Source of the DNA: an uncultured Nitrospinota bacterium
Lineage (GTDB): Bacteria; Nitrospinota; Nitrospinia; CAJXCL01
NCBI GenBank assembly: GCA_964394335.1
Contig: CAYMVZ010000001.1
Coordinates: 7,360-71,359, forward strand
Direction: 5' to 3'
DNA length: 64,000 nt
Program-made: the position numbers and the translations under genes
Part shown: positions 6,601 through 64,000 of the stretch, in pieces
Position numbering within the stretch: the first letter of the stretch is position 1
Layout: each line of letters begins with the position of its first letter
The notes under the pieces: model-generated
Seen by the model: the letters and a program-made list of their open reading frames with translations, nothing else
Databases searched by the model: none
What the model was told of the DNA's origin: nothing

Positions 6601-6828
6601 GCAAAAGAAAAGCAGAGTCTTTTGTTTAACGTTAAATTAGATCCGGCAGAACAAAATAATATTATTGCAGAAAACAGGGATATTGAAAAACAAATGCTTG
6701 AAGAAATAGAACTATTGGAGCAAGGAGGCAGAATAAATTACATGAAATTTCATAACAAGAATACTGGTAAATTAAAAATAGATAAAGATACAGAAAATAG
6801 GTTGCGAGCGCTAGGGTATATAAATTAG
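3610..6828 (+). CDS. Large lipoprotein (1072 aa): tandem beta-sandwich/lectin-like domains followed by a C-terminal alkaline-phosphatase-superfamily (sulfatase/phosphotransferase-like) domain.
   Basis: Lipobox LIIQNGC. C-terminal ILISIDTLRADHLSSYGY...TSDHGEEF, typical of PF00884-like domains. The canonical sulfatase C/S-x-P-x-R motif is not obvious. Confidence 0.6.
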   Translation: MYYDFKKILLLICLTFLIIQNGCTKDNNDFSHYDFVRNIEKANIHISTKNENFSAIEMETGIFESLDQQNVSENGQDDWQAIKTETTETLIQYSRRSQNTNSILSLDPLQINDGIISAEIKFDASPAENIKTKTERTLDTLLEYNSFNNLEDVVTSNIKAVHGNWFHIEDFLVENSLPEEKYFTEVKSLSKNAKYLLFELEPFFEGIMQTEINLGKEYSEGGVFISFSESGQEGYFITIDFNGFVILSDTKGEEGRRYITHSKIPEEVFKLIRKDSWINFTAVFYKDYLLVYIKGLSAKYVKIFTLFDALGHHLTRQNRPALFGLAKGNGHIVRFRNIKFKKKVDFPKTFENPLPEAGVVFRYSEGSGYGIALNMDGSLSIFTLNNGLADREITKKILGEKLDYDKWYSLKMLIWKNYVAVFLERKFKFIVSLESNDLNGKRLGLYANNLKNASFKNYSFTKNISFRSLSEMRKSIGMIEKENLYLDFNEGHKNTDFRLNPRFNKFVKKVKLNSDTRKALYLPYPGSFSYDINIPPNGILIFSYALAPQILDKEGYSHLFEVLIEGENGRAKKIFNKELNPMDALDKGWHNERIDLSEYAGAKVKIMFQNERTQKDGGVFLKNFAFWGNPVIFKPKKDNDINVILISIDTLRADHLSSYGYSKITSPFIDKLASHGTLFKNAISQAPWTRPSHMSIFTSLFASSHGIGLEYERKYKNHKERLPEIIETLPERLKDNGYFTASFNGGGHISSDYGFSQGFYTYNEQWPHINESYEPLSRWIRENHDMKFFLFFHAFDVHDYDENHEVGTFKDIISPKDHKLYIIDKYDSSIKYTDKFVRLLVNDLQELNLLDNTLIVFTSDHGEEFWDHKKFEHPFNGHSRYLYKSLINIPLIFYLPGKIPQNKIIDEKAMLIDIYPTILDILKITIPKHTQGISLLPLINGDVSSYQKKRPYAFSEEHFVRDRIAVMSNKYKFILRKEANKETLSSGNYRKWKVSNLAKEKQSLLFNVKLDPAEQNNIIAENRDIEKQMLEEIELLEQGGRINYMKFHNKNTGKLKIDKDTENRLRALGYIN

Positions 6829-12602: not shown

Positions 12603-12631
12603 TTTCAGGGAAATAGTTTGTCATTGAGGTT

Positions 12632-12673
12632 CCTGCTTTTGCAGGAAGAAACTCCAGCGGGGAGCTTCAATTT
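12632..12673 (+). repeat. Mini-copy of the dispersed repeat family (hairpin + GGGGAGCTTCAATT module) just after yidC.
   Basis: cctgcttttgcagg...cggggagcttcaattt matches the 3' module of copies at 31545 and 37689. Confidence 0.4.
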
Positions 12674-12740
12674 TTATGCGTTGGTAGAAATTCCTTTTTC
12701 TACACACAGTATGGATTATTAAAACAAAGGAGGTTTTTAT

Positions 12741-13265: not shown

Positions 13266-14837
13266 ATGCATACCGAAGATACTATTTCTGCCATTTCCAC
13301 TCCGTTAGGAAAGGGGGGCATAGGAATAGTCCGGCTCAGCGGTACTCTCTCTCTCCAGATAGTAAAAAGAACCTTTGTTTGTCTTAACGGCAATATAAAT
13401 GCTCTTTCAGTCTCTCATAAAGTTTATCCCGGCAAAATAATAGACCCCTCTACAAAAAAAGCGATAGATGAAGTGCTGGTTACTATAATGAAAACCCCTA
13501 ATTCTTACACAAAGGAAGATGTTGTGGAGATCAGTTGCCATGGCGGGATGGCGGTATTGTCGAAAGTTCTTGATTTGACTTTAAAAGAGGGCGCGCGCTT
13601 GGCTTTGCCCGGTGAGTTTACCAAAAGAGCGTTTCTTAACGGTCGTATTGATCTCACCCAGGCGGAAGCTGTAATTGACATTATAAATGCTAAAACCGAA
13701 AGCAGTCTTTTTAATACAGTAAGCCAGCTGAACGGTTCTGTTTCAAATGAGATTGAAAGCATTAGATCCCTTCTCGTAGACGCATCTTCAAAGCTGGAAC
13801 TGTCTATTGACTTTTCAGAGGAAGATGTTCCGACCCAGCCTTTAGAAGAAATAAAAAAATCACTTATAGACGCAAAAGAAAGAATAGAATCATTGGTTGA
13901 TTCATACAGTAGTGGACGTCTTTTAAGGGAAGGGATTAAGGTGGTTATTGCCGGAAGAACTAACGCAGGCAAATCAAGCCTGTTTAATTTGCTGCTTAAA
14001 AAAGATCGTTCTATTGTTACACATTATCCAGGCACCACACGGGATTTTATTGAAGAAGAGCTGTCATTAGAAGGGGTGACGTATAAAATTTTTGATACTG
14101 CCGGTATCCGCAAGGTGGCAGGGCCACAGCCACAATTCGGCAGGAAAGCCGAATTGGACGGATTTCAAAGAAAGGCCGCCCGAAGGGTTGAGGCCAGGGA
14201 TGGCCAAAATCAAATAGGGCCACCGCCCTCTTGCCTAACAAAACCTTTGCTAAAAAAAAACAAATATACAGATTTGCAGCACATATCCAACCATGAGATT
14301 GAGTCCGAAGGGATAGCAAGATCATACGAACTAATTGAAAATGCGGATATTACTTTATTAATAATACCTGCGTCCGAGGACTTGACTGAAGAAGATATCT
14401 TTCTTATAAGCACCATCAATAAAAAAAACAAAGAATGCTTGTATGTTTTAAACAAAATTGATTTACAGCAGCAGGTTGATTCAAAACGAATATCTGAAAT
14501 TTCCGGAATAGCGTCTGAAAAAATATTAAAAATATCGGTGAAGAAAAATATTGGAATCAATCAATTAAAAAACAGGATAAAACAATTGATCACCGATAAT
14601 CAGGCTGGCCTGGACACAGAGAAAACCGTAATTTGCAATGTGCGTCACAAAAATTTATTAGACAAGGCATTAGAGTCAGTCAAAACCGCCAAAGACGCTT
14701 GCGTGAAAAAGGCTTCTGAAGAATTCATTACCTTTGATGTTTCAAAGGCGTTAAATTCTTTGGATGAGATAACCGGACAGTCTTACTCAGATGAGGTTTT
14801 AGATAAAATATTTAATGAGTTTTGTATTGGAAAATAG
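13266..14837 (+). CDS. mnmE: tRNA modification GTPase MnmE (TrmE), carrying a ~60 aa in-frame insertion after switch II.
   Basis: N-terminal domain. G motifs GRTNAGKSS / DTAGIR. C-terminal FCIGK. 523 aa versus ~455 typical. Confidence 0.9.
   Translation: MHTEDTISAISTPLGKGGIGIVRLSGTLSLQIVKRTFVCLNGNINALSVSHKVYPGKIIDPSTKKAIDEVLVTIMKTPNSYTKEDVVEISCHGGMAVLSKVLDLTLKEGARLALPGEFTKRAFLNGRIDLTQAEAVIDIINAKTESSLFNTVSQLNGSVSNEIESIRSLLVDASSKLELSIDFSEEDVPTQPLEEIKKSLIDAKERIESLVDSYSSGRLLREGIKVVIAGRTNAGKSSLFNLLLKKDRSIVTHYPGTTRDFIEEELSLEGVTYKIFDTAGIRKVAGPQPQFGRKAELDGFQRKAARRVEARDGQNQIGPPPSCLTKPLLKKNKYTDLQHISNHEIESEGIARSYELIENADITLLIIPASEDLTEEDIFLISTINKKNKECLYVLNKIDLQQQVDSKRISEISGIASEKILKISVKKNIGINQLKNRIKQLITDNQAGLDTEKTVICNVRHKNLLDKALESVKTAKDACVKKASEEFITFDVSKALNSLDEITGQSYSDEVLDKIFNEFCIGK
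14111..14295 (-). repeat. In-frame, reverse-orientation copy of the dispersed repeat family inserted within the mnmE coding sequence.
   Basis: ccgaattggacgg...aaaggccgcccgaagggttgaggccagggatggc is near-identical to the reverse complement of 37530-37590 (ggcctcaacccttcgggcggctttcc...caattcgg). Local GC-rich, hairpin-rich. Confidence 0.6.
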
Positions 14838-26548: not shown

Positions 26549-26563
26549 AAAAAATCAAATTAT

Positions 26564-26612
26564 TGAAGCTCCCCTTAGCAAGCTACTGGGAATGCGCTCG
26601 CTAAACACTTTC
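26564..26612 (-). repeat. Mini-copy (reverse orientation) of the dispersed repeat core gaaagtgtttagcgagcgcattc...ggggagcttcaa.
   Basis: Reverse complement matches 37597-37620 joined to the GGAGCTTCAA module. Confidence 0.45.
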
Positions 26613-29711: not shown

Positions 29712-31238
29712 GTGAAACAAGATAGAATCGTTATATTCGACACTACCTTAAGAGATGGTGAACAATGTCCAGGAGCTAGTTTAAACACCGGCGAAAAGTT
29801 GGAGATTGCGCGGCAGCTTGCGCTTTTAAAAGTTGACGTTATTGAAGCTGGTTTCCCAATTGCCTCTCCCGGGGATTTTGAAGCAGTTAGCACTATCGCA
29901 CGGGAAGTCAAAGGTTCTACTATTGCTGGATTGGCTCGCGCGCTCAAGAAGGATATTGACGCTGCCGCTAAAGCCATCGAAAAAGCCAGAAAACCTCGCA
30001 TCCATGTCTTTTTAGCCACCTCTAAAATCCACAGAGAATTTAAGCTCAAAAAGGCAAAACAGGAAATTCTCAAGCAGGCTATTCAATCGGTAAAATACGC
30101 AAAAAAATTTGCTGACGATATTGAATTTTCTCCCGAAGACGCCTCCAGAACGGAGCAGGATTTTCTCAATGAGGTGGTGGAAGCTGTTATTGACTCAGGC
30201 GCTACCACGGTAAATATTCCTGATACAGTAGGTTATGCCCTTCCCGGTCCTTTTGGCGAGCTTATTAAAAACATCGTTGATAACGTACCCAATATAAAAA
30301 AAACCATAATAAGCGTCCACTGCCATAATGATCTTGGCCTTGCCGTTGCAAATTCCTTATCCGCGGTGAAAGCCGGGGCGCGCCAGGTTGAGTGTACAAT
30401 CAATGGGCTCGGGGAAAGAGCAGGTAATGCTGCTATGGAAGAGCTTGTCATGGGTCTTAAAACCAGGAAAGAATATTTTGGTGTGAAAACAGAAATTGAG
30501 ACAAAGCGCTTTGTCGGCATCAGTAAGTTGACGGCTAATTTGACCGGACTACACGTGCAGCGAAATAAAGCAATTGTCGGAGCAAACGCTTTTGCCCATG
30601 AAGCCGGAATTCATCAACATGGTATTTTATCCAAAAGAAACACTTATGAAATTATGGACCCTAAAGACGTGGGATGGGATAAATCTAACCTCGTAATGGG
30701 TAAACATTCCGGACGACACGCCTTTTTAGCACGGGTGAAAGAAATGGGATTTAAATTGTCAAAAGAAAAACTGAACACTGCCTTTGAACGATTTAAAATT
30801 CTTGCTGATGAAAAAAAAGAAATTTATGATGAAGACTTGCGCGCAATCATAGAAGACCAGTTAGGCAAAGAAGAAATCCAATACTTCTCCCTTGAAAAAT
30901 TCAAGATACTGGTAGAGACAGAGACCACGCCCGACGCGAATGTTACCTTAAAGTTTTATGATGGAAAAATCAAAAGCGCCAGGGCTTCCGGTGACGGACC
31001 GGTGGATGCCATTTTAAACGCCATTGATAAAATTACTAAGCTCAAATGCCGTTTGTCCGATTATGAAATCCGCGCTGTAACAAAGGGTAGAGACGCGTTA
31101 GGAGAAGTGAACCTCCAGGTAGAGCATAAAAAGCAAAAGGTGAGAGGAAAAGCCGCGGGAACGAATATTATAGAAGCAACCACATGCGCGTATCTCAGTG
31201 CTGTCAACCGCCTGATTAAAAAACAGCAGGAAGCGTAA
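29712..31238 (+). CDS. leuA: 2-isopropylmalate synthase (or citramalate synthase) of the LeuA family. GTG start.
   Basis: VIFDTTLRDGEQ and HCHNDLGLAVANS motifs; 508 aa. Confidence 0.8.
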   Translation: MKQDRIVIFDTTLRDGEQCPGASLNTGEKLEIARQLALLKVDVIEAGFPIASPGDFEAVSTIAREVKGSTIAGLARALKKDIDAAAKAIEKARKPRIHVFLATSKIHREFKLKKAKQEILKQAIQSVKYAKKFADDIEFSPEDASRTEQDFLNEVVEAVIDSGATTVNIPDTVGYALPGPFGELIKNIVDNVPNIKKTIISVHCHNDLGLAVANSLSAVKAGARQVECTINGLGERAGNAAMEELVMGLKTRKEYFGVKTEIETKRFVGISKLTANLTGLHVQRNKAIVGANAFAHEAGIHQHGILSKRNTYEIMDPKDVGWDKSNLVMGKHSGRHAFLARVKEMGFKLSKEKLNTAFERFKILADEKKEIYDEDLRAIIEDQLGKEEIQYFSLEKFKILVETETTPDANVTLKFYDGKIKSARASGDGPVDAILNAIDKITKLKCRLSDYEIRAVTKGRDALGEVNLQVEHKKQKVRGKAAGTNIIEATTCAYLSAVNRLIKKQQEA

Positions 31239-31286
31239 ACACGATTTATATACTGCACCTACCCAAAAGAGAATCTATTTGATTTC

Positions 31287-31590
31287 GGCAAAGCTGAGCT
31301 TAGCTCTGCCTTCCATGGCCTCAACTCGTTGGACGGCTTTCCTTCGGAAGCCGTCCAATTAGCTCCGCCCCGCTAAGCGTGGCTCCGCAGATTCGCCCAA
31401 AGGAGAGTAGCTACGAAGACTTGAATTCGGTTTCCCCTACTGAAAGTGTTTAGCGAGTGCATTCTCAGCAGCGTGCTGCGGGAATAGTGAGCGAACTTGA
31501 AATAAATTTATACTCTACACTGAAGCTTCTCTGTTGCTTGCTACGGAGAGCTTCAATTGTGGTTGTGACCCGTGGCCACTCTGCGATCTC
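31287..31590 (+). repeat. Long copy A of the modular dispersed repeat, upstream of the hut operon.
   Basis: ggcaaagctgagcttagctctgcc...gaaagtgtttagcgagtgcattc...gagagcttcaattgtggttg. Collinear with 37507..37728 plus an ~80 nt extra insert. Confidence 0.6.
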
Positions 31591-31688
31591 AGCGCTCCTT
31601 GCTGTGATTAATATCGACTCTTTCTTCAAATCTTCCAAAGGTTTTCCCTCATGATTTATGATAAAATTTAATCAGACTATCGTCTTTA

Positions 31689-33230
31689 TTGTTCAAATGG
31701 GAAAGCGATATGACTGAAAAATTTCAATATGGTCTTGATCAACTAACTATCACAAAAGCGCTTCAACTTGCAAGAGATGAAATGCAGGGAATTCTATCGG
31801 ATAAAGCCGTTTCAAATGTATCTAAAAGTTATGATGCGGTTCAAAAAATCGCTGAAGGAGAAAAACTTGTCTATGGCATCAATACCGGGCTTGGGTCTTT
31901 ATGTACCAGGAAAATTTCTAAAAAAGATATCAGAAAGCTCCAGGAAAACCTGTTAAAAAGTCATAGCGTAGGGGTGGGAGAACCTGTTACAAATGAACTC
32001 GCAAAACTCATGCTGATCCTGAAAGTTCATTCTCTCTGCTATGGTTATTCAGGAATTTCTCTCAAAGTCGTCGAAAGAATCTGCTGGCACATTGAACATA
32101 ATTGCATACCTCTGGTTCCCGCCCAGGGTTCCGTTGGAGCATCAGGTGACCTGGCGCCATTAGCTCACCTTTTTCTCTCTTTGCTCGGCCTGGGTATGCT
32201 CTCGGAAAACGGCAAAAACTATCTTCCTGCTCTGGATGTTTTGAAAACGCATCAACTTTCAGCTTTAACGCTGGGGCCCAAGGAGGGGGTGGCTTTAATT
32301 AATGGAACCCAGTTTATTTCAGCACATGCAATTGCAGTTTCCGAAAAGTTTGCTCGTTGCCTGGAGTATGCAGACCTTATTGGAGCACTCAGCCTGGAAG
32401 CGATGCTGGAATCTCATAAACCCTTTGTTGAAAAACTCCATCAGCTCCGGCCTCACCCCGGAGCACTAACCGTTGCAAAACGAATGAGAACAATTCTAAA
32501 AGGATCTCAAGTTGTTAAATCACATGAGCATTGCGGACGAGTTCAAGATCCCTACTCGGTCCGGTGCATCCCCCAGGTGCATGGCGCCTCCAGAGACGCT
32601 CTTGATCATCTTAATGAAAAACTGGTGTGTGAACTGAACTCGGTTACTGATAATCCTATCATCTTCAGTGCTGAAGACACAATAAGCGGTGGGAATTTTC
32701 ATGGCCAGCCTCTTGCCATGCCGTTGGATTACGTCAGCCTGGCGGCTTCAGAACTGGGCAGTATTTCCGAACGGCGCACTTACCTTCTTCTTGGAGGAGA
32801 TGCGGGTCTTCCAACGTATCTGATGAAAGAATCCGGGCTAAATTCAGGTTTTATGATTACCCAATACTGCGCTGCCGCCCTGGTCAGTGAAAATAAATCG
32901 AACTGTTTTCCTGCCAGTGCGGACAGTATTCCAACATCTATGGGGCAGGAGGATCATGTAAGTATGGGATCGATCAGCGGACGAAAAGCCCTGACCATTG
33001 TGAAGAACCTGGAGAAAATTCTTGCGATTGAACTATTGTGCTCGGCTCAAGCTTTTGATTTTAGAAGACCGGTTCAATCCAGTGAAATCCTTGAAAGGTT
33101 TCACTCTTCAATCCGAAAAAAAATACCTCATTTAAAAGAAGATACGGTAATGTCAGACTATATTGAAACGGCAACGAAATTTGTTTCAAATGATGATTTG
33201 TTTAAAGCAAGCATTAAGGAACTGTTATGA
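31689..33230 (+). CDS. hutH: Histidine ammonia-lyase.
   Basis: [12 protein letters not shown] (the Ala-Ser-Gly triad that autocatalytically forms the MIO cofactor); size. Confidence 0.9.
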
Positions 33231-34918
33231 GTTGTAAAATTGATTCAAAAACCTTTGAAACTTTTCTTTCTCAATACGCTTCACATCCTGTCTATAAAGC
33301 ACCGCGGGGAAACCAGCTTCATGCCAAATCATGGCAAACTGAAGCACCTCTAAGGATGCTTCTCAATAATCTTGATGAAGAGGTCGCGGAATCTCCAAAA
33401 GATCTGGTGATTTACGGAGGTACGGGTCAGGCGGCCAGAAACCCTGAAGCGTTGAAAAAAATAATCCAGTGCCTTTTATTGTTAGAGGAGAATCAAAGTC
33501 TTCTGATTCAGTCCGGTAAAGCGGTCGGCATCCTCAATACTGGTCCGGACTCACCCAGAGTATTTATCGCGAACAGCAACCTCGTTCCCCATTGGGCAAC
33601 TTGGGAACATTTCAATGAATTAAAAAAACGCGGGCTGATAATGTATGGTCAAATGACCGCGGGAAGCTGGATCTATATTGGGTCCCAGGGTATTGTTCAG
33701 GGAACTTTTGAAACCTTTTCCGCCTGTGCCAAAAAATATTTCGGAGGAACGCTTAAAAACCGGTTCCTGCTAAGTGGAGGTCTGGGAGGAATGGGTGGTG
33801 CGCAACCGCTCGCGGCAACCATGAGCGAAGCCGCGTTTTTGGGAGTGGATGTGGATGCAAGCAGAATTCAAAAAAGGCTCGATGCCCGATACCTTGACAA
33901 AATGACCCACTCTTATGAAGAAGCAAAATCCCTGATTTTAGAGGCAAAGGAAAAAGGAGCGTCTCTTTCCGTGGGATTAGTCGCCAATATTGCGGATATT
34001 GTACATCAGCTACTGAATGACAATATCCTTCCGGACGTGGTTACAGACCAAACCTCTGCTCACGATCCTCTCAACGGATATGTCCCCACAGGTCTGAGTT
34101 TGAAAGAGGCAATTGAACTTAGAAAAACCGATCCCGAACAATATCAGCAAAGATCTCTTAATACAATGGCAACACATGTCAGGGGAATACTTGAAATGCA
34201 GAAACAGGGAGCTGTCGCGTTTGATTATGGGAATAACCTGAGAGAATTTGCCAAACAGGGTGGGGAAAATGACGCGTTCAATATACCGGGGTTTGTTCAG
34301 GAGTATATACGTCCTCTATTTTGTGAAGGAAAAGGGCCCTTTCGCTGGGTTGCTCTATCGGGAGATCCAAAAGATATAGAAATGACCGACCGGGCTATAC
34401 TGGAAACATTCCCTGAAAACCGGCATCTGCATTTATGGATTAAAAAGGCTCAAGAGAAAATTGCATTCCAGGGACTACCCGCTCGAATCTGCTGGCTTGG
34501 ACTGGGAGAACGAGAAAAAGCAGGACTTGAATTCAACCGGCTTGTGAGAGAAAAAAAGATTTCTGCTCCTATCGTCATTGGCCGGGACCACCTGGATTGT
34601 GGTTCTGTTGCCTCACCGAACAGAGAAACTGAAGGGATGAAAGACGGTTCAGATGCAATTTCCGACTGGGCTATTCTGAATCTATTAACCAATGCTGCAT
34701 CAGGAGCTACATGGGTTTCCTTTCACCATGGAGGAGGAGTAGGAATCGGATATTCACAGCACGCTGGACTGGTTATTCTTGCGGATGGTTCCGAACGAGC
34801 GGAAAGTTGTCTTAAACGGACTCTATATAATGATCCTGCTACCGGAGTAATCAGACACGCGGATGCGGGTTATGAAAAAGCCATAAAAGTTGCAGAAGCG
34901 TTTGGATTAGCAATATAG
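33227..34918 (+). CDS. hutU: Urocanate hydratase.
   Basis: 563 aa; conserved urocanase blocks ([23 protein letters not shown]). Confidence 0.9.
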
Positions 34919-36160
34919 ATGAACAACTCGATTATAATAGGTCCTTTTAAACAAATCCTGACGATGGACAGGCTACCTGATTCCGGTCCCATTCGTGATG
35001 ACTCCCTTGAGATTATTTCCAACGGCAGTGTTTTGATTGAGAATCAAAACATTGTAAAAATTCTTCCCAAAAATAATTCTAAAAAAGCATCCCATTCCCC
35101 GGAGATTAAGGTTGATGAGCTTCAGGAGGATGCGGTTCTTATGCCGGGGCTCATTGACGCTCATACACATATCTGTTACGCGGGTACAAGAGAAGAGGAT
35201 TATGCAAGAAGGCTATCGGGAGAATCCTATCTTGAAATCGCGAAACAGGGAGGAGGAATTTTAAACACCGTTAGAAAAACAAGAGCCGCGTCGCAACAAG
35301 AGTTAGAACAAAGTCTAATGGAAAGAGCCCGAACCCACCTTCTCAGGGGTGTTACCACCTGTGAGGTGAAAAGCGGATATGGATTAACAAAGGACGCGGA
35401 ACTGAAAATGTTGAGAGCAATCCACGCTCTTAATCAAAAGGGAAGCCTGCCTGACTTAGTACCAACATGCCTGGCCGCCCATGTGAAACCTGAAGAGTTT
35501 CAGGATCATAATGAATATCTTAACTATATACTTCACGAATTATTACCCGCAATCAAATCCGAAAACCTGAGCGATAGAGTCGATATTTTTATAGAAGAGG
35601 GCGCTTTCAACCCGGAAATTTCCCTGAAATTTTTAAAACAGGCGAAAGCAAGTGGGTTTTCCGTCACCATTCACGCGGATCAATTTTCCAAAGGCGGTTC
35701 TGAAGTAGCTTCAAAAGTGGGAGCAATCAGTGCTGATCATCTTGAAACATCTGAAGATCGTGAGTTTGAAATGCTCAAATCGGCAAACGTTATTGCAAAT
35801 GTTCTGCCGGGAGCGTCCACAGGTTTGGGAATGCCCTTTGCGCCTGTTCGTAAGATGCTAAATGCGGGACTCACAGTTACAATTTCTTCCGACTGGAACC
35901 CCGGGTCCGCTCCCATGGGAGATCTGCTGACGCTGGCTTCCATGCTGGGTGCTGATAAAAAACTCACAACGGCAGAAACCCTTTCCGCATTGACAAATCG
36001 AGCGGCAAAAGCCCTGGAATTGAATGACCGGGGCCTAATCAAAACAGGATATCTTGCGGATATGATTGCCTATCCATGTAGCGATTATCGTGAGATATTG
36101 TATCATCAGGGTAGTTTGAAACCACATCGAATCTGGAAAAATGGGGAAAAAGTAAAATGA
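34919..36160 (+). CDS. hutI: Imidazolonepropionase.
   Basis: Amidohydrolase HTH motif (PGLIDAHTH); 413 aa; synteny. Confidence 0.85.
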   Translation: MNNSIIIGPFKQILTMDRLPDSGPIRDDSLEIISNGSVLIENQNIVKILPKNNSKKASHSPEIKVDELQEDAVLMPGLIDAHTHICYAGTREEDYARRLSGESYLEIAKQGGGILNTVRKTRAASQQELEQSLMERARTHLLRGVTTCEVKSGYGLTKDAELKMLRAIHALNQKGSLPDLVPTCLAAHVKPEEFQDHNEYLNYILHELLPAIKSENLSDRVDIFIEEGAFNPEISLKFLKQAKASGFSVTIHADQFSKGGSEVASKVGAISADHLETSEDREFEMLKSANVIANVLPGASTGLGMPFAPVRKMLNAGLTVTISSDWNPGSAPMGDLLTLASMLGADKKLTTAETLSALTNRAAKALELNDRGLIKTGYLADMIAYPCSDYREILYHQGSLKPHRIWKNGEKVK

Positions 36161-37200
36161 ACTTCAAACCACATTATAAACCACCAGACAAAAATAGATG
36201 GCAGGGGCGGGTTGACCCGGATGAAAACAGCTTGAGGCTGCATCAAGTTATTCAGTTTCTTGATCTCAAAGAACTTCATGTAACAGAGGTTGCAACCCAA
36301 TATTGTCAATCCACTGAAAAGTATAAAAAGATTGCGCTCATCGGATTTTGCTGTGATGAGGGAATCCGAAGAAACAAGGGAAGGACTGGCGCGAGGGAAG
36401 GCGCGAGTGCCATCAGAAAAGCGCTTGTTGATATACCGATACATTTTAATGAAAAAGAGACTCTGGTTTTGGACGCCGGTGATATCCTTTATAAAGAGAG
36501 CGCAATAACTTCCGGCGAACCCCTCCTCTCCACACAACTTGCCTTATCCACTGCAATTCAAATCTTATTATCCAACGGGTTTTTTCCTATCATTCTCGGA
36601 GGCGGGCATGAGGTTGCGTTTGGTCATTTTCATGGAATCCACTCCTTTCTTCACTCTCGTGAAAACAATAAACCAATAAAGAACATAGGGATTATAAATT
36701 TTGACGCTCATTTCGATCTGAGAGCTTTTCAAAATAACCGGGGAACTTCAGGAACGCCTTTTCTCCAAATCGCGAAATTATGCGGACAAGAGCAGTTTCA
36801 TTATCTTTGTCTTGGAATTCAAAAAACAGCAAACACAAAAAAACTTTTCCATACTGCCGAAGAATTAGGAGTTCAATATATTATTGCGGATGAGATTAAT
36901 GAAAGGGAGCGGCAAACGGAAATTATAACTAAAATCGAAACCTTTATTCAAAAAAATGAATTCATTTACCTGACTATCTGTCTCGATGTTTTTGATTCCG
37001 CCTTTGCCCCGGGAGTCAGTGCACCGGCTTCAAACGGTCTGGTTCCTCAATATTTTTTCCCTATCATGAAGAAAATATTAAGTTCAAATAAGGTCATAGG
37101 TATGGATGTAGCTGAGTTATCTCCCGCACATGACATTGATCAACACACAGCCAAACTGGCTTCTTTGATATTTTTTAATTTAATATCAGAATCTCTATAA
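36157..37200 (+). CDS. hutG: Formiminoglutamase (arginase family).
   Basis: GGGHEVAFG, DAHFDL and SLDVFD manganese-ligand motifs; end of the hut operon. Confidence 0.8.
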   Translation: MNFKPHYKPPDKNRWQGRVDPDENSLRLHQVIQFLDLKELHVTEVATQYCQSTEKYKKIALIGFCCDEGIRRNKGRTGAREGASAIRKALVDIPIHFNEKETLVLDAGDILYKESAITSGEPLLSTQLALSTAIQILLSNGFFPIILGGGHEVAFGHFHGIHSFLHSRENNKPIKNIGIINFDAHFDLRAFQNNRGTSGTPFLQIAKLCGQEQFHYLCLGIQKTANTKKLFHTAEELGVQYIIADEINERERQTEIITKIETFIQKNEFIYLTICLDVFDSAFAPGVSAPASNGLVPQYFFPIMKKILSSNKVIGMDVAELSPAHDIDQHTAKLASLIFFNLISESL

Positions 37201-37506
37201 TAATTTAACCGCGGAGTACGCAGAGGAAAAAAATTTTTTTTATTCGTATTAATTTCAGCGTCCTCCACGTCCTCTGCGGTTAAGAACTTTGGGCGGAAGC
37301 CCTTTGGGTTGCGACAACTTGCCGCTCTATGTTATTCTGTATTACAAACTTGTTAAATTGTGTTTTTATAGCAAAGCTGAGCTTAGCTCTGCAAAGTTTT
37401 TTAATACACCCCGTCCCGGCGGGACACCCCTCTTGTTAGAGGGGAATTCTCTTCCTAAATTCCCCCTTAAAAAAGGGGGATAGAGGGAGTTGTAATTTTG
37501 ATTATC

Positions 37507-37728
37507 GGCAAAGCTGAGCTTAGCTCTGCCATACATGGCCTCAACCCTTCGGGCGGCTTTCCTTAGGAAACTGCCCAATTCGGTTTTCCGTACCGAAAGT
37601 GTTTAGCGAGCGCATTCACCGCAGCTTGCTGCGGGGTTAGCGAGTGAACTTAAAATAAAATCATACTCTACACTGAAGCTCTGCTACGAGGAGCTTCAAT
37701 TGTGGTTGCGGCCCTGCCGCTCTGCGGT
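37507..37728 (+). repeat. Long copy B of the modular dispersed repeat, downstream of the hut operon. Partial fragments also at 37275..37290 and 37370..37395.
   Basis: Collinear with 31287..31590 and shares all modules. Confidence 0.6.
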
Positions 37729-37752
37729 TAATAAGAAAAAGTATTTATAAAT

Positions 37753-38769
37753 ATGAAAACTGCAAAACAAAATTATCAAATCATCAAGGAGCTGGAATCT
37801 AAAGCAATAGAAAACCGGCCGCTTGATAATGAAGAAGCTGTTTTTCTCTCCAACCTGAATGACCAGGATATTTTTGACCTAATTGCTTCTGCTAACCGTA
37901 TCAGGGAAAAGTTTAAAGGTAAAAAAATCAGTCTTTGTTCTATTGTAAACGCAAAGTCAGGACGCTGTCAGGAAAACTGTATTTTTTGTTCCCAATCTAT
38001 CCATTTTAAAACAAACATTGATGAATACCCTTTGATTAATAGTGAAGAGATACTTCAAAAGGCTGATGAAGCCTTAAGCCATGGAGCTCAGAAGTTTGGA
38101 ATAGTTACAAGCGGCAAGACACTTAGCACAGAGCAGGAATTAAATGAAATCTGCAAGACCATTAAAACACTTAAAGAAGACGGCAAAATCCACCGTTGTG
38201 CTTCACTCGGAATGTTAGGCCGTGTCGAATTAATAAAACTAAAAGAAGCGGGTCTTGAAGAGTATCATCATAATCTCGAGACCGCGCGAAGTTATTTCCC
38301 GAAAATTTGCACAACACATAACTATGAAGAAGACGTCGAGACAGTAAAGACAGCAAAATCCATCGGCCTCAGAACCTGCTGCGGTGGAATTTTTGGATTA
38401 GGCGAGTCTCCTGAACAGCGAATAGAGTTAGCTTTTACATTAAGAGAATTAGACGTCGATTCCGTGCCGATAAATTTTTTGCATCCCATTAAGGGAACCG
38501 GGACAGAAAACCTTCCTCCATTAAAGCCGCTTGAGATTCTAAAGATCATTGCCATCTATCGTTTTCTACTCCCCGCGAAAGACATAAAAATTGCGGGGGG
38601 GAGAGAGCATAACCTGAGAGATTTTCAATCAATGATCTTCGCCGCCGGAGCAAATTCTACCATGGTAGGAAATTACTTGACTACCAAAGGCAGGGCTTAT
38701 CAGGACGATTTACAGATGATCAAAGACATGGGCTTAGAACCGGTCTCCAATGGATTTAAAATCTCTTAA
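37753..38769 (+). CDS. bioB: Biotin synthase.
   Basis: Radical SAM CQENCIFCSQ; 338 aa. Confidence 0.9.
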   Translation: MKTAKQNYQIIKELESKAIENRPLDNEEAVFLSNLNDQDIFDLIASANRIREKFKGKKISLCSIVNAKSGRCQENCIFCSQSIHFKTNIDEYPLINSEEILQKADEALSHGAQKFGIVTSGKTLSTEQELNEICKTIKTLKEDGKIHRCASLGMLGRVELIKLKEAGLEEYHHNLETARSYFPKICTTHNYEEDVETVKTAKSIGLRTCCGGIFGLGESPEQRIELAFTLRELDVDSVPINFLHPIKGTGTENLPPLKPLEILKIIAIYRFLLPAKDIKIAGGREHNLRDFQSMIFAAGANSTMVGNYLTTKGRAYQDDLQMIKDMGLEPVSNGFKIS

Positions 38770-38772
38770 AAT

Positions 38773-38900
38773 CGGGCTGTCCGAGAACAATGAAAGGGAG
38801 CATGTTGTCATTCTGAGCGATGCGAAGAATCTCATGTTTTCAATACGTTGCCAGTAGGAGATTCTTCGGCAAAGCCTCAGAATGACATTTTCGGACAGTC
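38773..38900. repeat. MITE-like long imperfect palindrome with TGTCATTCTGAGC...GCTCAGAATGACA arms.
   Basis: gggctgtccgag...tgtcattctgagcgatgcgaagaatctc // gagattcttcggcaaagcctcagaatgaca...tcggacagtc. Confidence 0.5.
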
Positions 38901-38948
38901 TAATATCAGGATTAGAGTTCATCATAGGAGTGTTAATCCCTAGTGTAC

Positions 38949-38985
38949 TCGCCCCTTATGTCATTCTGGTTCCCAATCAAGTTGG
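38949..38985. repeat. Small palindromic element atgtcattc-tgg-ttcccaa tcaag ttgggaa tgacat (same TIR family).
   Basis: Reverse-complement symmetry seen directly. Related copies at 3458..3475, 40713..40752 and 42246..42276. Confidence 0.45.
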
Positions 38986-39211
38986 GAATGACATTACCTG
39001 ATCGGGAATCTAGTTGAGCACTGATCGCTGGGGTTCGTTATTCTCCTTGGTCTTACCTGCCTGTGTTAATTCGTACCCCCATTGCAGAATTGCAAAAATA
39101 TCAGCCTATATTGGATAAATTTGCAATATCGCATTATAATCAATGGTTATAACTCCTAATTCAATAGCAAAATCACTTGACAAAAGATGTCATACATTGT
39201 AAACATGCCGT

Positions 39212-39481
39212 ATGGTTTTCTATGAAAGTGAAATCAAAAAGGCCGTAAAAAAAGGAACTATCCCCAAAAATGTATTTAAAAGATTTGATAATGTGTTTAT
39301 TTCTTTAGATATTACAAATGATTTAGCTCTTTTTGATATTAAAAAATTAAAGTCATCGGGGGAAAAAACTTACTATCGATTGAGGAAAGGAAAGTATAGA
39401 GCTTTTTTTTTGTCGAAAAGAAAAATTACTATGTAATTTCATTAGCTAAACGCGAGGAGGTATATAAAAAATGGGGGTAGT
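39212..39481 (+). pseudogene. RelE/ParE-superfamily (BrnT-like) toxin gene disrupted by a -1 frameshift in a T9 homopolymer (39403..39411).
   Basis: Annotated frame ends ...YRLRKGKYRAFFLSKRKITM. Adding one T gives ...YRAFFFVEKKNYYVISLAKREEVYKKWG, matching the conserved RelE C-terminus and overlapping the antitoxin start. Confidence 0.5.
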
Positions 39482-39689
39482 TTCGGTTAGATTTAACAAA
39501 GAGGAAGAAAAAATAATAAAAAAACTGTCGGACCATTTTCATGCTGATAAGTCAGCATTAATAAAAAAATCCTTATATGAGCTTTATGAAAATATGGAGG
39601 ATATTAGTATAATAAAAAAATATGAGGCAAAAGAGAAAAAAGGGAAAGTTGCATTTTTCACTGCTGATAAGATTTTAACGCATGATTAA
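39471..39689 (+). CDS. Ribbon-helix-helix antitoxin (BrnA/CopG-like).
   Basis: VSVRFNKEEEKIIKKLSD...KSALIKKSL RHH pattern, immediately downstream of the toxin. Confidence 0.5.
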   Translation: MGVVSVRFNKEEEKIIKKLSDHFHADKSALIKKSLYELYENMEDISIIKKYEAKEKKGKVAFFTADKILTHD

Positions 39690-39894
39690 AAGGTAAGGAG
39701 TTATAACCATCGCATCAAGACAGACGTGAAACAGCTTGTCGCCGTTCTATGCTTTGTCAGCTATCAAAGCTTTTCTGATATTCTATCGCATTCCAGTTAA
39801 GTTTCACGCTGCCTACGCGTGTCGTTAGATAAAAGGGGTCATCTTTCCTTGACTACATATATTTTAAAGCAGCAGTCAAATATCAATAAATCAG

Positions 39895-39925
39895 TTGTCG
39901 GGTGTCAGGTGTCAGGTGTCAGGAA
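39895..39925. repeat. Tandem heptamer repeat gtcRggt x4. A related degenerate copy is at 42296..42325.
   Basis: tcgggtgtcaggtgtcaggtgtcagg. Confidence 0.4.
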
Positions 39926-40051
39926 AAAATTTTCAATTTACAGTTATATCAAAAAGTCTCAAGTCTGTTTTTGACTCTATGGCAACGAAAAAAAGCCAGA
40001 AAATGCTTGCCACCTTCCGGCTCTTAGAAATTTAGTTTTGCTGAGGAATAA

Positions 40052-48099: not shown

Positions 48100-48513
48100 A
48101 CTAAAAGTCTCCTTTGGTTAAAATTATATAATAAAGAAATCAGATAATAACATAAATTAAAAAAAAATCAAAGAGGGTTTCTACAGTAGGATCGATTGTG
48201 AGGTTAGTCAAGTAAAAGGTATTACACATAATCTGTTAGGGCGACCCTTGTGAGGTGGAAGCATAGATAGAAACCTTTCGATATGCTTAGGATGACAAAT
48301 TGGGAAGAGAAACTAAATTTTATGGGGCACCCTCTTTAGAGGTTATACACCCCGTCTCCTTCGGAGCCACCCCTCTCTATAGTGGATTTAATTGGAACAT
48401 TAGTTAAATTTTCATGGAAGCTCACCACAAAGCCGTAAAGTTCATAAAAGATAATATAAAAATCACTATTTGCCGGATAAATAAGGTATATGATATGATG
48501 TTTTTTCGATAAA

Positions 48514-48548
48514 TTGAAGCTCCCCGCAGCAAAAGGCTACTGGGAATC
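48514..48548 (-). repeat. Mini-copy (reverse orientation) of the repeat-family hairpin + GGGGAGCTTCAATT module.
   Basis: Reverse complement ttcccagtagccttttgctgcggggagcttcaatt. Confidence 0.4.
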
Positions 48549-62654: not shown

Positions 62655-63209
62655 ATGAAAATTGAATGGTCTGTAGTAGCTACAATAGCAGCGCCAATTA
62701 TTGCATTGTTTATTGGCGCCGCTCTAGATTCTTATCTTAGAAAAAAATCTAAGCTCATTGCTTATTTTGGCCATATTGCCGACTTTAGAATTAAAAAAGT
62801 AAATACTACTGCTGTATATACGCACAGTTTAGTCATTAGAAATGCAGGGAAATTAGCAGCTAACAATGTACGCCTAGGACATTATGCTATGCCTCCTGAT
62901 TTTCATATATCTCCTGCAATAGAACATGAAGTAAAAAACATACCGGACTCAGGTCAGGAAATTCTATTTCCAAAACTGGTGCCAAACGAACAGATAACCA
63001 TCTCTTATCTTTATTTTGTTGCAATCGAAGCAGGTCGAATCCATTCTTATTTAAAAAGCGACGAAGGATTCGCAAAAGTAATACCTGTCATTACGCAGCA
63101 AAGATTTCCGAAATGGGTTGGTAATTTAACAGTTATTTTGGCTTTAGTTGGAATAATAGCTTTGCTCTACATTTTCTACTCATTTATAAGTGGCATAGAA
63201 AAATCCTAA
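62655..63209 (+). CDS. Integron cassette ORF: 184 aa protein with N- and C-terminal TM helices, unknown function.
   Basis: Starts 8 nt after GTTAGGA. Stop overlaps the attC R'' site. Confidence 0.45.
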   Translation: MKIEWSVVATIAAPIIALFIGAALDSYLRKKSKLIAYFGHIADFRIKKVNTTAVYTHSLVIRNAGKLAANNVRLGHYAMPPDFHISPAIEHEVKNIPDSGQEILFPKLVPNEQITISYLYFVAIEAGRIHSYLKSDEGFAKVIPVITQQRFPKWVGNLTVILALVGIIALLYIFYSFISGIEKS

Positions 63210-63333
63210 CAATTTGGTGCACATGACAGTGAACAGTGAGTCGCCGTTTCATAAGACCCACTGCTATCAAAGGTTTCTGTATTTCAGAGTTTATATTGCC
63301 TTTGTTCACTGCCTGTGACCAAGGTCGTTAGGC
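63204..63333 (+). other. attC recombination site (~130 bp imperfect palindrome).
   Basis: R'' TCCTAAC (63204-63210) and R' GTTAGGC (63327-63333). Inner arms ttggtgcacatgacagtgaacag versus ctgttcactgcctgtgaccaa. Confidence 0.5.
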
Positions 63334-63370
63334 GGCAGTACGGATATTTCTCACAGATCAGGGGTTGAAC

Positions 63371-64000
63371 TTGAGTACACTGTCCCACCAAGAAGCAAGG
63401 CGAACGTATGATCGAATCGGTTCGCGGCAAGACTCGCAGCGGTTCTACGAGGACCAGGCCACTTCGCTGGTCCTGCAACACGGAGATTTCACTTCCGCGG
63501 AGTCCGTATTCGAGTTCGGCTGTGGAACCGGTCGCTTCGCGCTGCGCCTGTTCGCGGAATATCTACCTGACACAGCCCACTACCGTGGAGTAGACGTAAG
63601 TCCCAGAATGGTTCAACTGGCTCAAACCCGCCTTGCGCCACACTCATCGCGGGCGGAGGTTATCCTTACTGAGGGCGAACCTCCGGTTGAGGAACCCGCC
63701 GAGTCCTACGATCGATTCATATCAAACTACGTCTTTGATCTACTGTCCCACGAGGATATCCGGGCCGTTCTTCGAGAAGCCCATCGGATTCTTCGCCCGG
63801 ACGGTTTGCTCTGCTTGTCAGGAATTTCCAGCGGGATCGGTTTTGTCTCGCGGATCGTGGCGGGCATGGTGAGCTGGATTCAGTCTATTCGCCCCTCTCT
63901 GGTGGGCGGTTGCCGCCCTGTCGATCTTCTACCATTTCTGCCGCAGTCAGAATGGCAGGTGCAACATCATTCGAAGGTGGTGGCTTTTGGTATTTCATCA
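63371..64000 (+). CDS. Class I SAM-dependent methyltransferase on a GC-rich gene cassette. TTG start after an AGGGG SD; 3'-partial. The ATG-based track splits it into wrong frames.
   Basis: Continuous open frame …EFGCGTGRFALRL…YDRFISNYVFDLL…ILRPDGLL… (motifs I, post-I, II). GC far above the flanks. Confidence 0.55.
   Translation, partial: MSTLSHQEARRTYDRIGSRQDSQRFYEDQATSLVLQHGDFTSAESVFEFGCGTGRFALRLFAEYLPDTAHYRGVDVSPRMVQLAQTRLAPHSSRAEVILTEGEPPVEEPAESYDRFISNYVFDLLSHEDIRAVLREAHRILRPDGLLCLSGISSGIGFVSRIVAGMVSWIQSIRPSLVGGCRPVDLLPFLPQSEWQVQHHSKVVAFGISS

Follow-up and report, generated by a model that had tools for sequence, protein, structure and literature searches.

The hutHUIG operon of an uncultured Nitrospinota bacterium stands between two composite non-coding repeats, copies A and B, in a 64,000-nucleotide stretch of assembly GCA_964394335.1 (contig CAYMVZ010000001.1, positions 7,360 to 71,359 of the forward strand), referred to here as the window. 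The repeats belong to a Nitrospinota-specific and lineage-specific family of nested, non-coding hairpins, which is a new member of the class of small palindromic repeats. The bracketing of hut is most likely the incidental build-up of a repeat mosaic at a variable junction, and not the boundary of a mobile cassette. We consider it probable that A and B are independent members of a nested family akin to MITEs (transposable elements of the miniature inverted-repeat type), repetitive extragenic palindromic (REP) sequences and Rickettsia palindromic elements (RPE), and that their position around hut carries no cassette function.

Both copies are built on a multi-hairpin core, E, in which further modules (M1, insA, P2 and X) are set. 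A preliminary description of this DNA had reported two direct repeat copies either side of hutHUIG, and this is confirmed; they have the same orientation and the following parts.

31275..31585, plus strand: copy A, composite repeat (modules identified by comparing about 100 copies)
31275-31288, plus strand: copy A, E linker
31288-31309, plus strand: copy A, M1
31310-31360, plus strand: copy A, 5' part of the E core with hairpin H2
31361-31423, plus strand: copy A, insA, with P2 nested at 31369-31388
31424-31444, plus strand: copy A, 5' arm of hairpin H3
31442-31557, plus strand: copy A, long X module
31557-31585, plus strand: copy A, 3' end of E with hairpin H4
37490..37730, plus strand: copy B, composite repeat
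37490-37508, plus strand: copy B, linker
37508-37529, plus strand: copy B, M1
37530-37597, plus strand: copy B, E core with H2 and the 5' arm of H3
37595-37700, plus strand: copy B, long X
37700-37730, plus strand: copy B, 3' end of E with H4

Copy A is thus E with M1, insA (containing P2) and a long X, and copy B is E with M1 and a long X. These same-strand composites have about 215 nucleotides (nt) in common at 87% identity, aligned in blocks of 76 nt (87%), 104 nt (87%) and 33 nt (88%) in the same orientation; A contains in addition one 63-nt and one 10-nt block, and the longest perfect match between the two is 26 nt. The shared modules quoted in the preliminary description were all recovered in place, far beyond chance (0-0.1 matches expected in shuffled sequence): the 22-mer GCAAAGCTGAGCTTAGCTCTGC, which marks M1, at 31288, 37371 and 37508 (0 expected in shuffles), GAAAGTGTTTAGCGAGYGCATTC at 31442 and 37595, and GAGCTTCAATTGTGGTTG at 31548 and 37691. 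That description had overlooked a third copy of GAAAGTGTTTAGCGAGYGCATTC (26590-26612, minus strand), a full copy of the element in mnmE and two X remnants (12652-12671 and 48513-48544). Neither A nor B contains an open reading frame (ORF) or encodes a protein, and no duplication surrounds the whole unit. The X of copy B is 95% identical to a copy at another locus (L128; compared loci are given L numbers). Its identity to a copy in L092 is 90%, and to the X of copy A only 80%; the best match of the latter (86%) lies in L156. Because the X of B is nearer to L128 and L092 than to that of A, the two copies are not duplicates of one another and appear to be independent members of the family.

The anatomy of the family was drawn from about 100 copies, found in three genome bins (Nitrospinota Fu_MAG_119, a Tara bin and bin CBDUII) and 66 metagenome stretches. 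The base element (~95 nt) consists of a left arm (CTGTACTGCAAACTTGTAAAATTGTGTTTTTTTAGCAAAGTTTTTGTT), hairpin H0 (GGGC-NNNN-GCCC), TTTGGTTG, hairpin H4 (GYGGC-loop-GCCRC) and CTCTGCG. Many copies contain, between H0 and TGGTTG, the ~95-nt core E, made of TATTTGATTTCGGCC-ATCCATGGCCTCAAC and the hairpins H2 and H3. Each of the smaller modules has its own place in E: M1 (20 nt) is inserted at the GC of TCGGCC, insA (43 nt, or 63 nt in copy A owing to the nested 20-nt P2) lies between H2 and H3, and X (50-117 nt) sits in the 3' arm of H3, from CCGAA to TTGTGG. The modules are combinatorial, with M1 in 17 copies, insA in 6 and X in 3-4. Since the combination of insA and an enclosed P2 is found again at unrelated loci (L092, L110 and L142), such composites are copied as units.

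The family is both dispersed and common. The E core is present three times in the window and at 29 places in the genome loci of the three metagenome-assembled genomes (MAGs); the 66 metagenome stretches (537 kb in all, selected for having one) contain 82. The 16 extra copies in these selected stretches correspond to about one core per 20-35 kb, or roughly 10^2 copies per genome; local clustering above background was considered and rejected, as the 16 extra copies fit this density.

Among 44 short copies, compensatory changes are seen in H3 and H4. At pair 57/65, 19 copies have UA and 16 have CG, every one of the 5 H4 pairs covaries, and the covariation score was reached by none of 500 shuffles, slid controls being far lower. 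In H2, which is conserved, 43 of the 44 copies have a G.T pair. Leaving this pair aside, the stems contain G.T mismatches as often as A.C mismatches, and an attempt to assign the strand by wobble pairs failed on this account. A closing stem of E (GGCCTCAAC/GTTGCGGCC), predicted by minimum free energy, is not claimed here: it shows no covariation and competes with the covarying H4. Terminal inverted repeats or a long-range pairing of H0 with H4 proved inconsistent when about 20 copies were inspected by eye.

Such structures could suggest that the repeats serve the flanking operons as RNAs with a function or in regulation, acting as terminators, 3'-UTR stabilisers or small RNAs, or as leader or promoter of hutH and bioB. 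We regard this as unlikely. The folds of both A and B are indeed more stable than shuffles (z = -3.3 and -2.9), the covariation of H3 and H4 and the nearly invariant G.T pair of H2 would be in keeping with it, A and B are sense-oriented with co-directional genes either side, and one terminator-like hairpin was scored within the X of copy B. However, the family as a whole has no orientation preference relative to genes (12 copies co-directional in the same sense, 15 antisense, 14 divergent, 7 convergent) and also occurs in coding regions, mismatches of the wobble type show no strand asymmetry, and no excess of promoter- or terminator-like elements was seen at copy A, with weak hairpins only at copy B. 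No Rfam family matched the window at gathering score, and at E<=5 the interval 31000-38000 gave chance-level matches only. Moreover, the copies of a sister species (L055, see below) lack most of the modules, yet the 100 nt upstream of hutH are ~91% conserved there. Because there is neither orientation bias, wobble asymmetry nor an Rfam match, while H3 and H4 change in a compensatory manner, the hairpins fit a role at the DNA level, of the REP or MITE type; a strand-specific RNA does not fit.

In the window, mnmE (13266-14837) contains an element in frame, directly after the DTAGIR motif, and encodes a protein of 523 amino acids (aa).

14111..14281, minus strand: full-length element in mnmE (left arm, H0, E core and H4; 171 nt, or 57 codons)

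Orthologues of mnmE in the clade encode 466 (no insert), 491, 499/500 or 523 aa, and the difference is confined to one point. The site is empty in L155 (466 aa; ..atccg|cagttcc..); the inserts measure 75 nt in L156 (491 aa; the base element), 99-102 nt in the 499/500-aa orthologues (500 aa in L158) and 171 nt where the base element also contains the E core. Because one relative has an empty site and others have intermediate sizes, the elements must be, or have been, mobile. Interrupted Pfam matches were seen in two further genes. That of a DUF1848 gene (L115:4810-5994, 394 aa; also in L112, L133 and L040) is divided in two by an E copy in antisense, apparently a second case of insertion in frame within a gene, and the match of TPMT in L137 (3143-3946, 267 aa) is likewise in two parts and may represent a third. 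Intergenic sites vary too. The yidC-jag spacer (window 12603-12740) holds a 20-nt X remnant and the orthologous spacer of L156 (2217-2475) a full 117-nt X; it is a further orthologous spacer with differing repeat states.

What, then, of the bracket around hut? The operon comprises four genes, each scoring above the cut-off of its NCBIfam equivalog, with leuA 5' and bioB 3' of the block (NCBIfam).

31689-33230, plus strand: hutH
33227-34918, plus strand: hutU
34919-36160, plus strand: hutI
36157-37200, plus strand: hutG

Tara Oceans and JGI marine metagenomes contain identical contigs of 83 kb. LeuA is 61-64% identical to proteins of Nitrospina and other Nitrospinota and 79-96% to those of a small, closer uncultured clade. 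The sister species, Nitrospinota Fu_MAG_119 (L055, a locus that covers 180 nt past hutG), is 88-91% identical at the nucleotide level from leuA through hutG. Left of hut it has a short E with M1, without insA, P2 and X; right of hut, H0, the linker and M1 are followed directly by left-arm sequence (truncated), and the repeat interiors are not conserved. Because L055 has the bracket with different modules, the bracket is older than the split of the two species, and not a recent cassette; its modules are unconstrained. Further away, the genes after leuA differ in all four of the more distant relatives (LeuA 83-91%).

L159, LeuA 91%: unrelated ORF after leuA
L160, LeuA 86%: outer-membrane efflux protein after leuA
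L086, LeuA 85%: metallophosphoesterase after leuA
L085, LeuA 83%: histidine kinase, response regulator and hemerythrin, then bioB

The junction varies even among strains that are 99.94% identical, whose contigs leave the path of the window inside the right-hand repeat cluster: L003 and L005 at 37565 (locus positions 6760 and 3082) towards ABC-transporter permeases and PEPCK, and L004 at 37424 (locus position 6628) towards cobU; L084 begins in the same cluster. These switches may reflect strain rearrangement or assembly paths through the repeats.

The preliminary description had suggested that the direct repeats could mediate deletion or amplification of hut, or mark the operon as acquired. A cassette bounded by recombination, either by homologous exchange between A and B or by a transposase acting on the outer ends in the manner of a composite transposon, would explain the matching orientation of the two copies and why each is of the rare X-bearing form. 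It would also suit the lineage-specific position of hut, the nearest named relatives of HutU outside the clade, which are Bacteroidota and Deferribacter (70-73%) with no Nitrospinota named, and the strain contigs that diverge in the right-hand cluster. We nevertheless judge it quite improbable. A and B are only ~80-87% identical, differ by indels and match perfectly over at most 26 nt, so that homologous deletion would be rare at most; they are not sister copies, encode no protein and are not enclosed by a duplication. The bracket is kept, with different modules, in a species ~10% diverged. The more distant relative L087 (HutU 85%) has hut in another neighbourhood, with a mini element upstream only and nothing downstream. 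The variant contigs retain hut and change only the downstream neighbour, and may be assembly paths. All contigs that encode an identical LeuA or BioB contain hut or end in the repeat, and these exact-protein look-ups revealed no hut-less leuA-bioB site with a solo repeat, the arrangement expected where hut is present in one relative and absent from another; L055 keeps hut. Nothing in these results points to A and B acting as a pair.

The earlier interpretation survives in part: the position of hut is lineage-specific, no Nitrospinota appear among the named relatives of HutU, and the strain contigs part within the right-hand cluster. The normal composition and the old, stable bracket speak against a recent acquisition. 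The hut genes have a G+C content at third codon positions (GC3) of 0.385-0.403, within ~1 sd of the window mean (0.341; sd 0.053), and a recent transfer is unsupported by composition. There is no tRNA in the window and no integrase or transposase among its genes; the hut block has no genomic-island signature, neither a tRNA or integrase border nor an atypical composition.

Nor does the bracketing itself call for a function. The family occurs in all intergenic geometries and also inside genes, and similar arrangements are found around unrelated genes: three same-strand copies surround a transglutaminase gene in L110, and copies of the same orientation surround TPMT and two other genes in L137. 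Since the density is about one core per 20-35 kb, several pairs in adjacent spacers are expected by chance in each genome. The significance attached to the bracket in the preliminary description thus gives way to the general distribution of the repeat. That the arrangement is an assembly artefact can be set aside with near certainty: contigs of several assemblies do break or branch at these repeats, but the whole 21-kb region is identical or 1 nt apart in two independent assemblies, JGI 3300020423 and ENA ERZ841001, and L003 and L004 contain the left copy as well.

We propose that the elements spread as DNA and would be mobilised in trans by an enzyme encoded outside the window. The leading candidate would be a single-strand transposase that recognises hairpins (HUH/Y1, either a REP-associated tyrosine transposase (RAYT) or IS200-like). 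After insertion, copies would decay, lose internal parts and recombine. The leuA-bioB interval is best read as a rearrangement-prone junction at which elements have accumulated on both sides of hut. The repeat clusters may cause the rearrangements at this junction or may only gather there.

Several points weigh against this interpretation of A and B as independent, incidental and DNA-borne. The placing of two copies in adjacent spacers of the window is mildly unlikely by chance (~0.08, or 25 of 325 pairs for 26 spacers), and with matching orientation the chance is 0.04, both values being post hoc; by this count the case is not strong in either direction. The rare X lies at the same internal point in A and B, which could reflect exchange between them rather than independent site-specific insertion. 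The consensus ends of the element (CTGTACTGCAAAC... and ...GCCRCTCTGCG) are not reverse complements and do not form terminal inverted repeats, the only hairpins being internal. The empty and filled mnmE sites permit a target duplication of at most 2 nt (TG/CA), or none, and show no unambiguous one. The copy-number estimates come from loci chosen for carrying a copy and not from a closed genome. Finally, no mobilising enzyme was identified in the Nitrospinota loci or among the window genes; in particular, no Y1 transposase was found in the Nitrospinota loci by tblastn of the 1.29 Mb of loci, with an approximate RAYT query (its one match being verified by Pfam).

That search did return one Y1_Tnp gene, the only one in the 1.29 Mb, in a Brocadiaceae MAG (L015:2371-2871; PF01797, 32.9 bits). 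It has its own, differing hairpins (CACAGGCAGGGATGCCTGTG) on both sides and lies 80 nt upstream of a hairpin bearing M1. We take this as a lead and not as evidence.

M1 is a 20-nt sequence, AAAGCTGAGCTTAGCTCTGC, placed at a GC dinucleotide and usually at the tip of a hairpin; it occurs three times in the window (31288-31309, 37371-37392 and 37508-37529) and also in loci L006-L081. The 22-mer GCAAAGCTGAGCTTAGCTCTGC is found exactly in 76 stretches of species-representative genomes assigned, by the titles of the MAG records, to Nitrospinota, Candidatus Scalindua, Brocadiaceae, Planctomycetota, Saccharibacteria and Patescibacteria. Single MAGs hold 5-22 such stretches and tens of M1 copies, always within some other hairpin specific to the phylum. 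Pairs of empty and filled sites, exactly 20 nt apart at the GC, are available for three host repeats (cattcccGCgaaagcgggaat, ggttcaatctGCaagattgaac and ttaaGCctcgta), and a fourth comes from the E core (TCGGCCATCC). Per site, M1 has diverged by 1.9%, and the neighbouring H3 in those same copies by 13-17%. P2 (AAAGCCCCGCTGAGCGTGGC and variants) is a further unit of 20 nt, frequently lying inside insA or arranged in tandem with M1 (window 31369-31388; L026, L064, L066, L085, L092, L110 and L142). M1 and P2 have the same layout, GC+(NNNGC)x4, with the core GCTNAGC in both; this pattern occurs 332 times in the loci as opposed to 2 times in shuffled sequence, nearly all being M1 or P2. One may tentatively see in M1, possibly together with P2, a self-contained 20-nt mobile or templated insertion, a reading to which we give somewhat less than even weight. 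We know of no transposition mechanism for an element as small as 20 nt. A phage vector was also considered for M1 and rejected, viral contigs containing no exact match, and the literature searched held nothing relevant on the M1 sequence or on Nitrospina repeats.

When compared with known systems, the family shares traits with several and coincides with none. RPE are non-coding palindromic repeats found between genes and in frame inside intact conserved genes (PMC10969869). The present elements are likewise non-coding palindromes of ~100-170 nt, both intergenic and in frame (here in mnmE and apparently DUF1848). Unlike RPE, which belong to an unrelated host phylum and with which no sequence homology is expected, they have separable nested modules, and a single gene site shows insert sizes of 0, 75, ~100 and 171 nt. 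REP sequences, bacterial interspersed mosaic elements (BIME) and REP doublets forming hairpins (REPINs) of Proteobacteria, as well as the pneumococcal BOX, RUP and SPRITE repeats, also form mosaic intergenic clusters of imperfect palindromes that are nested or adjacent and modular. For REPINs, a single-copy Y1 transposase (RAYT) acting in trans has been proposed as the agent of movement (PMC3116915; PMC10969869). In contrast to an inverted doublet of 20-35-nt palindromes, however, E is a single asymmetric multi-hairpin unit of 95-170 nt; the doublet layout is absent here, except perhaps at 37205-37283, and RAYT was not found in the loci of this lineage with the approximate query. Correia/NEMIS and other MITEs are similarly small, non-coding, dispersed, strongly structured and polymorphic for presence or absence, and the size and copy number of the present elements agree with this class (95-310 nt, no ORF, 3 in the window, 82 in 537 kb); the family differs in lacking clear terminal inverted repeats and an unambiguous target-site duplication, and no related autonomous insertion sequence was seen. 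The flanks of hut differ from those of a composite transposon in having no transposase and in not being near-identical (80-87%, 26 nt exact). As for a genomic island, variable neighbours and a patchy distribution of hut are present, but a tRNA, an integrase and an atypical composition are not. The closest analogue to M1 and P2 would be the small dispersed repeats (SDR) of heterocystous cyanobacteria (Elhai et al. 2008, Genome Res 18:1484), reportedly units of ~20 nt that form discrete insertions nested in other repeats. M1 differs from them in being invariant (1.9% per site), present in several phyla and set at a GC in the loops of unrelated hairpins, and the sequences are apparently unrelated.

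The other members of the repeat mosaic in the window are as follows.

37205..37283, plus strand: inverted pair of the 3'-terminal motif of the element (TTAACCGCGGAG...CCTCTGCGGTTAA), with an A/T-rich loop between
37291..37331, plus strand: mini element, H0 (GGGCGGAAGCCC) joined directly to the 3' end (TTTGGGTTG, H4 and CTCTATG)
37335..37400, plus strand: left arm of the base element (TTCTGTATTACAAACTTGTTAAATTGTGTTTTTATA), with a solo M1 (37371-37392) inserted at its GC
37406..37489, plus strand: module Y, two GC-rich hairpins (CCCCGTCCCGGCGGGAC / CCCCTCTTGTTAGAGGGG ... CCCCCTTAAAAAAGGGGG)
26562..26612, minus strand: solo short X module, 51 nt, in the spacer of gspM and gspD
12652..12671, plus strand: X remnant (CTCCAGCGGGGAGCTTCAAT), in the spacer of yidC and a KH/R3H gene
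48513..48544, minus strand: X remnant (hairpin and GAGCTTCAAT)

The family fragments and G+C-rich hairpins noted at 37200-37500 in the preliminary description are real and correspond to the first four of these. The inverted pair is missing at the orthologous place in L055. The mini element is the base element without the E core, internally deleted. Y represents a separate repeat family, built of short hairpins of G and C runs (CCCCTC..GAGGGG, CCCCCTT..AAGGGGG), and is also found in L139, L004, L086 and at window 48330-48390.

The window as a whole is ordinary core chromosome, with rnpA-yidC-jag-mnmE, a type II secretion operon, leuA, bioB, smc, lptE, holA, pyrD and carAB. After bioB, a 1.28-kb interval (38770-40051) contains only two called genes, both small (74 aa; 72 aa, with DUF6290), which may be a toxin-antitoxin-like pair. 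At 63001-64000 the G+C content rises to ~0.50-0.54 with no listed ORF, probably because a gene extends past the window's end.

For hut, the repeats give no reason to treat the operon as a mobile cassette, and its flanking spacers are better annotated as repeat mosaics. For the genomes in which they occur, they account for assemblies that fragment or branch at specific spacers. In an uncultured, ecologically important lineage of marine nitrite oxidisers, the repeat system clearly exemplifies selfish DNA that is organised hierarchically, module within module, and it offers natural in-frame insertions of graded sizes in the conserved GTPase MnmE. It also exposes an invariant 20-nt insert, M1, common to several phyla; if M1 is indeed a self-contained insertion, a conserved, sequence-specific enzyme acting in trans or a templated repair process must exist.

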